From an uncultured archaeon (lineage in GTDB: Archaea > Asgardarchaeota > Thorarchaeia > Thorarchaeales > CAZPUN01), in assembly GCA_964589775.1 (NCBI GenBank), contig CAZPUN010000021.1, positions 120,001 through 152,000 of the forward strand: a stretch of 32,000 nucleotides of DNA, read 5' to 3'. Below the pieces are notes generated by a model. That model had not been told where the DNA came from. It made no database searches and was given only the letters and a program-made list of their open reading frames with translations. The translations under genes and the position numbers were made by a program. This document shows, one piece after another, positions 12,714-18,563 of the stretch (position 1 is the first letter of the stretch; each line of letters begins with the position of its first letter).

Positions 12714-13967
12714 ATGAAATTCTCACTATTTAAAAAAGATCCAGTAAAAAAGGCAAAAAAGCTCGTTGATAAGGGCGATTATTATTGGGAAATCGATGAT
12801 TTAGATGCTGCTGCAAGTCATTATGAGAAAGCTGCGCAAATATATGATGAACTTGGAGATTTTGAATCTGCCGAAAAGTATTATTTTGAAGCTGCTCGAT
12901 GCGGGTTAGAACTAGATGATGAAGAAATGGCTGCAAAGTACAAAACATATGCCGCATCTATTTTAATGAAAGAAAATAAAGCCCGTGAAGCTTCAGATAT
13001 TATGAATGAAGTTTCAGACCATTTCTTAAGAGCCGGGAAAACGAAAGAATCTGCCCGAGCATTAGGTGTTGCAATTATTTCTGCAATTGCTGCTTCTGAC
13101 TTCAATCATGCTATAAATCTTACAAAGAAAATAAAGCGAAAGGGCAAATCTAAAAAATTAGATCATCCCGTATTAAAACTCGCTGAATATTTAACAAAAA
13201 TCATATGTAATGGTGAAGTAATTTCCGAATCCACATTTGAAAAAGCAGTATCTAAAGCGTCATTTAATGATATTGAATTTAATTTTATCTCTCCCGTTAT
13301 TGAGGGTGCTCGATTATCCCATGATACTACAATTTCTATTGAGCCAATTTCCAGTCTTAAAAAAGTAACAACTGGTAAGGTATTAAAATTCAAAATTAAA
13401 ATTACTTCCCCTGTACCTTCTCAAGTAATATCTACAAGTTTGCCTTTATCTCGTAATTTAATCATTACAAAGGAGCCTGAATTTTCTAAAAAGCCAGTTT
13501 TAAATGAGGAAGTTAAATTTGAAGTCAAATCAAGCATAAGTGGTAGTGCAATTGTTGGCCCATTTAAAATTACTTTGAAAAGTGATAAAGCAATTCTCCA
13601 CAAGATAACAAATTCAATTGAATTTGAAGTGGAGCCACCAAAAGCCAAAGTAGAACTATTCGTTGATTCCGAGGAATATTCTGTATCTACCAATAATGAA
13701 TTTCAAATTAACGTGAGAATAAAGAATATGCGGAGTGATTCCATAGATAATATCCTATTAAAAGCAGAATATCAAGAAGGCATTGATTTGAGTCTGGGCA
13801 CATCTGAAAAAACAATTGGAATTCTTCCCGGTAATTCTGAAATGGATTTTCCATTCTACTTTATTTCATCAGAGCCTGGTGAAAAAATCATTATGTTCAA
13901 AGTATTCGAAAAAGACCGCAGTAAAAAACCACTAGACCAGATAGCAATAAAAATAAGAACTGGCTAA
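12714..13967 (+). CDS. SNAP/TPR-like alpha-solenoid fused to two Ig-like beta-sandwich domains
   Basis: aa 1-200 helical repeats (AAASHYEKAAQIY, AEKYYFEAARC). aa ~205-305 and ~310-417 have alternating beta patterns (GKVLKFKIKITS, NEFQINVRIKN, ILPGNSEMDFPFYF). No signal peptide or TM. Confidence 0.65.
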   Translation: MKFSLFKKDPVKKAKKLVDKGDYYWEIDDLDAAASHYEKAAQIYDELGDFESAEKYYFEAARCGLELDDEEMAAKYKTYAASILMKENKAREASDIMNEVSDHFLRAGKTKESARALGVAIISAIAASDFNHAINLTKKIKRKGKSKKLDHPVLKLAEYLTKIICNGEVISESTFEKAVSKASFNDIEFNFISPVIEGARLSHDTTISIEPISSLKKVTTGKVLKFKIKITSPVPSQVISTSLPLSRNLIITKEPEFSKKPVLNEEVKFEVKSSISGSAIVGPFKITLKSDKAILHKITNSIEFEVEPPKAKVELFVDSEEYSVSTNNEFQINVRIKNMRSDSIDNILLKAEYQEGIDLSLGTSEKTIGILPGNSEMDFPFYFISSEPGEKIIMFKVFEKDRSKKPLDQIAIKIRTG

Positions 13968-13982
13968 ATTGCCAGTATTTCT

Positions 13983-15983
13983 CTATTTTTGCAGGTATTG
14001 TATCAATGCCGAGTGTAGGTCTTTGTGTAACTCACTAGGTATAATTCCACGTTCTTCTAATGCTGCTAAGCCTTCATAGATCATAACTTGGCTCTTTGGT
14101 CTGTCGATAATTGACAACGATTCAATTTTATGGCGAATTTCTATATTGTCTTTGTTCAGTATATAGCGTCTTAATGCTTTCGCAAGATCTGTAAATCTTT
14201 TTCCAATAGATGTAAATGGAAATGCAGCATTAGAATTGGATAATGTTTGCCTTAATGGAGGCGCAACGAAAAGATGTTCCTTATTTTTCAAAGTGACTGT
14301 AATTACGTAGAATGGAATGTAGATCGTATCAAAAATAGAAATTTCGGATGAGAATCTCAGATAGTTTTTCAGAAAAGTAGCAGTATTTAGAACCTCATTG
14401 CGAATATCATCCACTCTATGTTTGAAATATGCCAGTTCAACAACGATTGATTTTCTAAATTCATCGAATTTCTTAATGCGTTCAAGTTTTTCTTTTTCAA
14501 AAGCATCGCGTTTCTTGATAAGTTTCTCCTTTGCCTTCTCAGCTTCCTTCCGAACTGTTTTTTCGTCTTTACTCTTGCGGATCTTCGCTGTCTCTGTTTT
14601 TAATTTGGTAATCTGCTCAATTATATCGTCCGTTTGCTTTCTCCAATCTGCTAGATTCTGTCTATATTTCTTGATTAATTCTTCAAGTTTCTCTAGTTTA
14701 TTCTTTTCGCCCTTTAGATATTGGTTCAAGCTCGATAATCTTAGTGCCTTTGTTTCCTTTTCGATTTCATCTCCCAATTGAGAGACAAGTTCAATCATTT
14801 TAATTTCTTGTTCGCTAAATAGTTCACCCGACAAAATCAAAAGTTCTTGTTCAAGATTCGCATCAATTTTGTCAATTTCTCTACTGATCTCTTCCTCTAG
14901 TTTAATCTGTTCTTCTTCAAGGCTGGAAACGAGTTTTTCTCTTTCTTCATTTAGATATTCATTCCATCTATCAATGAATTTTTGAATAATTCGACCGATC
15001 TCTCGCTCTCTTCGCTTACTTTCTGCGGTTTCTGAAATCACTTTAATCATTTTCTTTACATATTCACTATGCTTGTCGGCATTATTAATCGGAAGTTTAT
15101 ATGCCGAATCCGATTTTTGTGTTCTAATTGTCTTTTTGAACAAATTGTTTCTTAAAATCATTTCATCAAGTGCATCTTCAATGACTTCGATTTCTTCCTT
15201 TACTTCATTGAACGGATCATGACATTCTGAGAAGCCTTGAAATTTCTCTAGATCTGTATTCAGACATTTTTCTAATACTTCTGCAGCTTTCTTTGGTTCG
15301 GGCAGCTTCAAATATTTAAATTCCTGCTTAAAATAGCCTTTCTGACCTGAAAGCATTATTCGATATTCGCTAAGTGGTAATGATACAAATGGAAAGAGAA
15401 CTTTGCTAAATGATTTTATCTTTATACCTTTTCGGTTTGATTTTAATTCAGATTTGATTTTGTTATCTACCCACATGTAAATCGCTGCAAGTTCTTCAGA
15501 TGGATCTGCAGGATCAAGTTCTGTTCCATCCATAAATATGGTTGCGGCTGAAACCGGTAACCGATTTTTCTCCAGCGTGTTTATTGCATTTTTTGCAAGT
15601 TCTTCGATAATTGGCTTAAATGACTCGAAAATTTGAGCATTTCCATCCCAATCTTCAAGAACATTTCTGTATTGTGAAATAAACTTTTCTTTCGCTTCGT
15701 TCATGAAATCACTTATGATATCATCCGGAAATTCTGAGGCAGTTCCAATTGCAAAAATCGTTCCACTTTTCTCATCGACATTGTATGAAATTTTCATATC
15801 CTCTAAATCCATTTTTCGAATTGGTTTTGAACCGGCTTCCTGACCCAAATTAAAAATAGCTCCAATAAGGCTTGAAAATAATAACTCATCGAAATCTTCT
15901 GGAATCCATGAATATTTGAATAGAAGTCTACCATCAATTTTTAGTGCATAGAAGAGTTTTATGGGGGTTTGCATATAGATCAA
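13983..15983 (-). CDS. Longin-domain protein with a long central coiled coil
   Basis: N-terminal ~130 aa match the longin pattern (LFYALKIDGRLLF, DELLFSSLIGAIFNLGQE, KFISQYRNVLEDWDGNAQIFESF). aa ~305-530 are an E/K/L-rich coiled coil. Start TTG 15983 or ATG 15974. Confidence 0.75.
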   Translation of the reverse strand: MIYMQTPIKLFYALKIDGRLLFKYSWIPEDFDELLFSSLIGAIFNLGQEAGSKPIRKMDLEDMKISYNVDEKSGTIFAIGTASEFPDDIISDFMNEAKEKFISQYRNVLEDWDGNAQIFESFKPIIEELAKNAINTLEKNRLPVSAATIFMDGTELDPADPSEELAAIYMWVDNKIKSELKSNRKGIKIKSFSKVLFPFVSLPLSEYRIMLSGQKGYFKQEFKYLKLPEPKKAAEVLEKCLNTDLEKFQGFSECHDPFNEVKEEIEVIEDALDEMILRNNLFKKTIRTQKSDSAYKLPINNADKHSEYVKKMIKVISETAESKRREREIGRIIQKFIDRWNEYLNEEREKLVSSLEEEQIKLEEEISREIDKIDANLEQELLILSGELFSEQEIKMIELVSQLGDEIEKETKALRLSSLNQYLKGEKNKLEKLEELIKKYRQNLADWRKQTDDIIEQITKLKTETAKIRKSKDEKTVRKEAEKAKEKLIKKRDAFEKEKLERIKKFDEFRKSIVVELAYFKHRVDDIRNEVLNTATFLKNYLRFSSEISIFDTIYIPFYVITVTLKNKEHLFVAPPLRQTLSNSNAAFPFTSIGKRFTDLAKALRRYILNKDNIEIRHKIESLSIIDRPKSQVMIYEGLAALEERGIIPSELHKDLHSALIQYLQK

Positions 15984-16499: not shown

Positions 16500-17588
16500 A
16501 TGACCTATCTGTCCCCTGAACTCGATTATTTCGATAGAGTATCAGAGGATATTCCAAGGGGCAGAGTGGTCTCTATTTTTTCTCCTCCTGAAATTTATGT
16601 GGGTGAATTTGGTTATCCTCGAGTTCAGATAGGGTTTGTTGGGGCTTTGAATCTTCGTGTGAAACCTAATATTTTAAGTTCTCCCGAAATTTGGATAACT
16701 ATGGGGCGTCAGGACTTTTTCAGAATGCGATCTGAGATGTTCAGATTCATCCAGCAAGTTGATATTACATCAAAGAATCCATGGATTGAGTTTCTTCAAA
16801 ACATAGTACTTTCGAATAACTTCATCAAAGTAAATGTATCTGCGTTTAGGATTCCGAAACGTAAAGCATATTTTCTCCCTATTGGTATTCCCTATGGTCC
16901 CGTTGTTAAAATTAATAATGCTTATCTTGAGAGTGAGTACTCTGTTGATCCTTATGTAGAACGAATAGTTTCTAAAGATATTATCTCTAAGAAATCTGTT
17001 TGGAGCCTGTATCAATACGGTTTGAAATTTAATGAAATAGTGCAATTAATGAGTTTGGGACTTATCGGCCGTTTGGAACATCGCAAATTACTTCCAACGA
17101 GACACGCGATGGGTGCCGTTGAATCTATTCTTGTGTCTCGATTGCGTGATGAAGTACATAGATTTCCATCAATTGATTTATTTGAGGTTCATAAATTCAA
17201 TGCGTTTGGAGATAAATTTATTGTCGTTCTTGCCCCAGGTGATCCTCATATCTTATACGATATTATTTCTGACAAGACCGAGAATCCCAATGTAACGTCT
17301 GAAGTTATTTCAGCATTTATCAATGATCGTCTGGAATCTATACAATTTCAAGATGCACCTGATTGCGTTCAGTTTCCAATTCTTGAATATTTGTATTCCA
17401 TTCAGCGAAAGGCATCTGCTATTGTTTTTAGATATTCTAAGGATCGTATCAACCGAAATATGGGTAGTTGGTTCGTTCGAAATGCTATCAAAAATGCATT
17501 ACAAAAACGACCGAAAATCTTTGAGTTAAGTGATATAATTTATCAATTGCATCAGTTTGCTTCAGTTAATATCGCAAAAATATTATAA
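16500..17588 (+). CDS. Divergent Nre-family (archaeal DNA repair) protein
   Basis: SPPEIYVGEFGYPRV, SLGLIGRLEHRKLLPTRHAMGAVE, ILEYLYSIQRKA, GSWFVRNAIKNA align with Nre conserved blocks; GAGGTGA SD. Confidence 0.75.
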   Translation: MTYLSPELDYFDRVSEDIPRGRVVSIFSPPEIYVGEFGYPRVQIGFVGALNLRVKPNILSSPEIWITMGRQDFFRMRSEMFRFIQQVDITSKNPWIEFLQNIVLSNNFIKVNVSAFRIPKRKAYFLPIGIPYGPVVKINNAYLESEYSVDPYVERIVSKDIISKKSVWSLYQYGLKFNEIVQLMSLGLIGRLEHRKLLPTRHAMGAVESILVSRLRDEVHRFPSIDLFEVHKFNAFGDKFIVVLAPGDPHILYDIISDKTENPNVTSEVISAFINDRLESIQFQDAPDCVQFPILEYLYSIQRKASAIVFRYSKDRINRNMGSWFVRNAIKNALQKRPKIFELSDIIYQLHQFASVNIAKIL

Positions 17589-17606: not shown

Positions 17607-18563
17607 TTATATCTTCTCTCGGGCTTTTCCACGTGATAATGCCTTGTAAAGTATTCCAAGTCCGACTCCGCCGGTTTCCAATCCTGTAACTAGTGCTCCA
17701 GCAGGAAATACTTTCATTACGACACCGAACATGAATGCTGATACGCCTAAGAACAATAACCCACCGAGTGTACCACCAGCTCGGAACATCATTGATTTTG
17801 GATATTTCGCTTCGATGATATATCCGTTTGAGGCACTGACAAATGCTTTGTATTTTTTCTTTCCGTATCTATATGTTAATTCCCACACTGGCACATGAAT
17901 TAGAAATAGCTCCTTTAATTCGATGTTGTCATCTCGCCATTCTATTTTGTCTATCTCCTCGAGAATATGTGCAGTCTGCAAGTTATATGCTCTTTCTTTT
18001 GCTTTTTCAGCAGCTTGATCTTGATCTATTTGGCTGTCTATGATCTTTCCATGATATTTCTTAACAAGTGCGATATCAAAATATTCTTTTGCACGTACTG
18101 GTATTGGCATTTCAGCAATTGCCTTGTTTATTTTGGTCTGTCCCAAGATAGCTATTTCGTGGCGTCTATCCACAACACCTTCCTCGTCTTTCCAGTGCCA
18201 GTGAATGTGCTTATATGCGTTAGGCATTTGTGGCCAACGATCACTAAATGTTGCATACCTGTCTTTTCCTTTATATTCTGTTTTTGCATCAACGTGTGCA
18301 ATCCAGAATGGATAGAACTTTAAGTCATATTCAATGAATGTTGCTGCCCAACTAATGTCATCTGGGACACCTAACTGTTTTGAGACCCAATATAACAATG
18401 TTTCTTGGGCTTCCCGTAATGAATAGTGAACTCGAATCATATAATGGTCTTTAAATTTCTCTCCCTTTACTGTAAATGTTGTACCACAGTAGGGGCATGT
18501 AAATAGGACATCTCCCGAATGTGGCTTAAAATCCGCATCACAATATGGACATCTCATAATCAT
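17607..18563 (-). CDS. YdjG-like Zn-ribbon protein with C-terminal membrane anchor (paralog 2)
   Basis: CPYC..CPYC, LKFYPFW, IHVPVWELTYRYGKKKYKAFVSASNG, two C-terminal hydrophobic helices. GGAGG SD directly follows the upstream gene's stop. Confidence 0.75.
   Translation of the reverse strand: MIMRCPYCDADFKPHSGDVLFTCPYCGTTFTVKGEKFKDHYMIRVHYSLREAQETLLYWVSKQLGVPDDISWAATFIEYDLKFYPFWIAHVDAKTEYKGKDRYATFSDRWPQMPNAYKHIHWHWKDEEGVVDRRHEIAILGQTKINKAIAEMPIPVRAKEYFDIALVKKYHGKIIDSQIDQDQAAEKAKERAYNLQTAHILEEIDKIEWRDDNIELKELFLIHVPVWELTYRYGKKKYKAFVSASNGYIIEAKYPKSMMFRAGGTLGGLLFLGVSAFMFGVVMKVFPAGALVTGLETGGVGLGILYKALSRGKAREKI

Follow-up and report, generated by a model that had tools for sequence, protein, structure and literature searches.

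In Bacillus subtilis, foci of the ESCRT-III homolog PspA and of the SPFH protein YdjI at the membrane depend on YdjG (SamG), which is encoded in the pspA-ydjGHI (pspA-samGHI) operon (PMC8581546; PMC13713150). Longin dimers and roadblock dimers serve as platforms for GTPases, and in Asgard archaea the GTPase genes are seldom found in operons with them (PMC10933270). In the searchable text and tables of the sources, known Asgard longin partners are GTPase, Vps28-C/adaptin, DENN, NPRL2, TRAPPC3 and signalling domains, and Vps22 occurs with a steadiness box (PMC10936438; 10.1101/2020.10.19.343400; PMC10933270). Longin fusions in Asgard archaea and YdjG are already known; here we describe a fusion of this kind with a widespread, unnamed family behind it, starting from a gene in a 32,000-nucleotide stretch of an uncultured Thorarchaeales archaeon (the window; GCA_964589775.1, contig CAZPUN010000021.1, positions 120,001 to 152,000). 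The gene encodes a longin domain followed by a rod body, and we tentatively propose, jointly with the mechanism set out below, that its product belongs to an ancient TACK-Asgard family of soluble rods, as the paralog that bears the longin. It resembles the Asgard multidomain longin- and ESCRT-related proteins in that longin and EAP30 occur in lineage-specific fusions, but none of the longin or Vps22 fusions described in those texts and tables has the rod body. No description of the body or its fusions was found in the literature text searched, figures excepted, and the family may exist there as an unnamed asCOG or arCOG.

The reading frame is open throughout positions 13983-15983 of the minus strand. 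The ATG at 15974 is the likely start because an 86%-identical relative begins at the same methionine; an alternative TTG at 15983 would add three residues. The parts of the gene are as follows.

13983..15974, minus strand: longin-rod gene, 663 residues, ATG start at 15974
15564..15974, minus strand: longin domain, residues 1-137
15081..15563, minus strand: N-terminal half of the split, probably YdjG-related core, residues 138-298, including motif 1 (P195)
14361..15080, minus strand: helical insert, residues 299-538 (from DSSP of the model and the insert length table)
13986..14327, minus strand: C-terminal half of the core, with the motif 2 strand and hairpin (residues 550-576), then four helices

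An AlphaFold model was obtained from a 56-row alignment (mean predicted local distance difference test score 85, predicted template modelling score 0.63). Motif 1 (SFSKVLFPFVSLPL; residues 188-201, 15372-15413) and motif 2 (TIYIPFY...VAPP; residues 550-573, 14256-14327) lie where the original prediction had placed them, both within long strands of the model (E184-200 and E550-562). They are more than chance resemblances, since P195, P554 and P573 are kept in most of 134 diverse rod members (96%, 73% and 92%, respectively). The long helical insert expected between them is also present in the model, where residues 299 to 538 are predicted helical and interrupt the core at the helix preceding the last long strand. 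By DSSP, this insert consists of one helix of 113 residues, a break at residues 412-425, and helices of 41 and 70 residues, from which we infer an out-and-back coiled coil. The N-terminal half of the core has a basic loop (residues 170-192, net charge +6), and the C-terminal end of the core has a conserved NLL...GL..L...G hairpin without a counterpart in YdjG. This hairpin gave an hhalign probability of 2% against a shallow CdvA-like profile and a weak SHOCT match in 3 of 59 members (best E 2e-4).

Residues 1-137 match longin in a fold search, in agreement with the original prediction, and have the longin topology of a five-stranded sheet, one helix after strand 2 and two C-terminal helices in about 120-140 residues. 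They do not reach the Pfam Longin cut-off (E 0.05, 13.9 bits vs. 26.2 needed); a homolog of the protein reaches Fuz_longin_1 at E 6e-7. The original prediction had the longin capping a rod. Both longin and rod are borne out, but the longin does not cap the far end: it sits at the core end, or base, because all modules join at the termini, which the split topology places there. It is also optional, as the majority of rod members lack it. Unlike eukaryotic longin proteins (Sec22b, Vamp7, TRAPPC1/2/4, Mon1-Ccz1, Fuzzy/Inturned, AP sigma/mu), the protein has a single longin and no SNARE motif or membrane anchor, and the body after its longin has no eukaryotic match in PDB or Pfam.

Two genes near the rod gene bear the paired motifs that had been quoted for them.

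17607..18563, minus strand: YdjG/SamG homolog 1, with zinc ribbon, core and C-terminal hydrophobic helices
18572..19606, minus strand: YdjG/SamG homolog 2, a probable homolog of the rod core

A hidden Markov model (HMM) of 43 archaeal YdjG-like members matches the YdjG of the pspA-ydjGHI operon along its whole length (E 2.6e-34), and by this profile the two neighbours are true YdjG homologs. When 134 rods with the insert removed were compared with the 43 YdjG-like sequences using hhalign, the core matched the YdjG-like profile at 94.7% (E 6e-8) in local and 92% in global mode. The aligned blocks come in the same order: motif 1, an L..i...eA helix start, and motif 2. Probabilities of 87-95% were obtained at 18 of 20 choices of splice junction, compared with 0.4% for a reversed core and 68% for swapped halves, while 41 unrelated families gave at most 4% against the rod core and at most 5.2% against YdjG. 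The order of secondary structure elements is the same in the rod model and the YdjG-like model. Rod core and YdjG thus very probably share ancestry, and the core that the original prediction saw in all three proteins is supported as remote homology; the insert would then extend the YdjG helix that runs into the motif 2 strand.

The likeness could instead be a convergence of short proline-aromatic strand motifs, the rod being an unrelated new fold. Consistent with that, shallow alignments bring the profile match down to 1.2%, the unspliced rod body gives 51%, the N-terminal half alone 55-60% and the C-terminal half alone 29-32%, the core reaches 9% against the single Bacillus sequence, and the insert splice was made by the analyst. 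But three separate, colinear blocks match, the result is stable over most junction choices, swapping the order lowers it, the controls stay at or below 5% when rounded, and the secondary structure orders agree, so that we consider convergence improbable, independently of the functional alternatives discussed below. Common ancestry leaves large differences from YdjG/SamG. The rod has no N-terminal zinc ribbons, transmembrane helices or long beta-hairpin, and has instead the 240-residue helical insert, a C-terminal helical subdomain and the longin, which takes the place of the N-terminal zinc ribbon; some rod paralogs do have N- or C-terminal zinc motifs. No C-terminal membrane anchor is seen in the rod protein (maximum 19-residue hydropathy 1.38 vs. 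2.26 in the YdjG-like neighbour), and only 2 of 230 rods reach 1.8; hydropathy shows the rod to be, by prediction, soluble and free of transmembrane segments.

The proximity of the rod and YdjG genes is local history and not a conserved operon, because a single one of 102 wide loci, that of the 86%-identical relative, has a YdjG-like gene no more than 5 kb from the rod gene, and the YdjG pair, kept in 40 of 40 sister-family genomes, lies away from the rod gene on the chromosome. The three genes are therefore not the conserved unit they had been taken for. Among the neighbourhoods examined, the rod gene is in no operon with pspA, TPM and SPFH genes. A YdjI/SamI homolog with an SPFH domain and C-terminal zinc ribbons (E 1.6e-15 vs. 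Bacillus YdjI) is encoded about 3.4 kb past the window's right end (G000:C21:155428-156417, minus strand), on the strand of the ydjG pair and about 16 kb from it, with iscU, iscS and a giant surface protein gene between. Single-query searches of this genome gave no match to PspA or YdjH. A soluble YdjG-like subfamily of about 250 residues, with zinc ribbon, core and short C-terminus, occurs in several Asgard families and Bathyarchaeia (L190, L191, L192, L193).

A full-library search returned full-length longin-plus-body homologs at 21-24% identity. The body-only profile matches 255 of 400 Asgard genomes, and 180 of 221 genomes match when the profile is coil-free and built on the N-terminal half of the core; the body was not found in the searched genomes of Asgard families f4, f5, f6, f11, f26, f29 and f33. 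It also occurs in Bathyarchaeia, other Thermoproteota, Thermosphaera, Staphylothermus, Metallosphaera and Sulfolobus, the records of the last four genera being named only 'hypothetical' or 'coiled-coil', and no describing entry in Pfam, NCBIfam or PDB matches it. The typical member has 520-560 residues and no longin, whereas longin-fused rods are found in seven Asgard families (f1, f14, f15, f16, f28, f30, f32). Genomes have several paralogs, with a maximum of five. Length is strongly conserved across rods at 15-25% identity. Counted from where the long helix begins up to motif 2, and therefore alignment-dependent, the insert has 263-268 residues in most Asgard archaea, about 251 in Bathyarchaeia, 213-215 in Sulfolobales, about 308 in one Thermoproteota group, 159-171 in most EAP30 forms and 255 in the gene described here, which shows a length apparently fixed by lineage. 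A 725-residue protein of family f8 (L306:2893-5067) matches the N-terminal core profile only, and weakly (E 7.5e-5); it is possibly a further rod architecture.

The modules that Asgard paralogs carry at the core end are interchangeable and comprise a longin, a Rab-like GTPase, Ig plus EAP30/Vps22 winged helices, and zinc ribbons. This genome has three paralogs, namely the longin form, a bare 527-residue form (C47) and an 805-residue form on the same contig as the longin-rod gene, whose C-terminal EAP30/Vps36-family domain is above cut-off. The EAP30 domain fused to the rod body scores 70 bits (cut-off 26.8). Such fusions of EAP30/Vps22 winged helices are found in Thorarchaeales; in the sister family, a form with a carboxypeptidase-regulatory-like Ig domain ahead of EAP30 is common, and bare rods there terminate in a zinc ribbon. 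A Rab-like GTPase is fused to the N-terminus of the body in two f30 genomes (L297:5863-7932 and L298:5407-7458; Pfam Ras 190 bits), a small Cys/His domain in four, and these genomes also encode the longin form. Near an EAP30-rod gene lie a longin-GTPase fusion and a coiled-coil protein whose C-terminal hairpin is CdvA-like (L105:3391-5107; PF18822 E 6e-5); in the sister family, too, both are found close to the EAP30 form.

We tentatively suggest that the rod works at membranes as a spacer or scaffold, placed by a longin-GTPase contact and linked to ESCRT-II through the EAP30 paralog. Folding out and back, the insert would form a rigid arm about 17 nm long (113 residues at 1.5 Å each), and the core would dock either on the membrane surface or on a partner associated with the membrane, in the way that SamG does within the PspA(ESCRT-III)-SamGHI complex. 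The longin would pair with a second longin or a roadblock protein and bind a small GTPase, whose state would control the placement of the rod, which could then act in membrane remodelling or repair. We count in favour the longin fold, the core-YdjG profile match, the Rab-like and EAP30 fusions, the lineage-fixed insert and the low hydropathy, together with the YdjI/SamI homolog, a separate EAP30 protein, and HMM matches in this genome to longin (24 open reading frames) and small GTPases (16). Several observations weigh on the other side. The functional links all come from fusion or remote homology, and Asgard genomes freely shuffle longin and other eukaryotic signature protein domains (10.1101/2020.10.19.343400). 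Most members are bare and lie in housekeeping neighbourhoods without an ESCRT, SPFH or GTPase operon, the Rab fusion is restricted to one family, and the basic loop reaches a charge of +2 or more in just 56% of members. Family f22 has the rod almost universally, yet a search of 37 of its genomes turned up no YdjG-like genes, so the rod does not depend on them. Atlas shape searches listed neither YdjG-like clusters for the rod nor rods for the YdjG-like protein.

On its upstream side the rod gene has a divergent neighbour.

16500..17588, plus strand: Nre gene

The Nre-rod interval is an AT-rich 516-base gap without an open reading frame of 90 residues; in a close relative, a 176-residue gene is called there (L023:9280-9810). 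A SNAP-like gene (12714-13967; SNAP-like repeats at 25.2 bits, at cut-off, and a TRAPPC13_C-like domain, E 1.5e-5) is convergent with the rod gene, the two sharing a bidirectional terminator-like hairpin at 13959-13976; in the neighbourhoods compared, no other rod had such a gene beside it. In the majority of Lokiarchaeia-type loci, an unannotated gene of about 285 residues lies directly upstream of the bare rod in the same direction (L070:8746-9606 and equivalents, 15 loci); it has no Pfam or NCBIfam match, and its product is a candidate partner. Three Asgard families have rod paralogs just upstream of a 1140-1230-residue gene (L105:7462-13990; L305:449-6875; L308:1651-6885), which opens with a GIE.E motif, followed by probable Ig-like domains, and which from that start we take to be glutamate-cysteine-ligase-like.

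Three other functions were considered. Nre is a PCNA-binding repair protein (PMC4929162), and 20 of the 102 loci, drawn from three lineages (Bathyarchaeia, Asgard f15 and this genus), have it within 5 kb of the rod gene, a count inflated by kinship and including a duplicate. With NucS close by in some Bathyarchaeia, and zinc ribbons and winged helices capable of binding DNA, this could point to a DNA- or chromosome-associated coiled-coil protein, accessory to repair or segregation, with the Asgard caps as regulatory add-ons. The rod is also like the SMC/Rad50 hairpin coiled coils in having a head built from N- and C-terminal halves around a long helical insert; unlike them, it has no Walker motifs, hinge or zinc hook, its arm is far shorter, and its head is probably YdjG-related. 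A split ABC ATPase head (Walker A/B, signature) was not found among the conserved rod columns, no NCBIfam match came near cut-off, and the SMC/Rad50 matches are coiled-coil noise well under cut-off. Since the Nre loci are mostly kin, with variable orientation and intervening genes (divergent here), and no Nre lies near Loki, Thor f2, Heimdall or crenarchaeal copies, we regard a DNA role as distinctly unlikely.

The original prediction called the protein tether-like, and a long-range vesicle or membrane tether would explain the helical arm, the longin and the Rab fusion; longin and GTPase would then occupy one end, and the tip would make a second contact with a membrane. Arm and longin stand, but no tether subunit is matched above noise (COG6_N at E 0.02 only; the fold-search lists are filled by longin). 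The accessory modules are all at the core end, and near the apex no position is conserved at 60% or more, the sole such position in the insert being residue 356. The family is older than its caps and is present in Sulfolobales, and an arm of about 17 nm is short beside golgin-type tethers. We rate a tether as distinctly unlikely. Little credence is given to a self-assembling structural or cytoskeletal filament or lattice, in which arm length sets the repeat and caps recruit regulators: length conservation at such low identity and up to five paralogs that could co-assemble would suit it, but known filament proteins are not matched in fold or profile searches, and an intramolecular hairpin explains the fixed length without polymerisation. 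The membrane spacer or scaffold is the reading we prefer. An extended form of it, which we think unlikely as a whole, is that the scaffold derives from the PspA-associated YdjG fold, dates from the TACK-Asgard ancestor, and became in Asgard archaea a hetero-oligomeric hub physically joining small GTPases (longin and Rab paralogs) and ESCRT-II (EAP30 paralog), a prokaryotic GTPase-regulated membrane scaffold or proto-tether lost or unrecognisable in eukaryotes.

Asgard genes for small GTPases, longins and ESCRT parts seldom share operons (PMC10933270), so gene order gives few leads on how their products connect to membranes. One conserved body fused in turn to longin, Rab-like GTPase and an ESCRT-II domain is a concrete candidate connector, and would link a bacterial PspA-associated fold with archaeal cell biology. 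The longin form is available in Ca. Freyarchaeum deiterrae (WXG41215.1), and the rod gene is single-copy in 33 of the 47 Sulfolobaceae searched, so its basic function is open to genetics in a culturable archaeon. The occurrence of the same rod with different eukaryote-type trafficking parts suggests an old scaffold for membrane handling.
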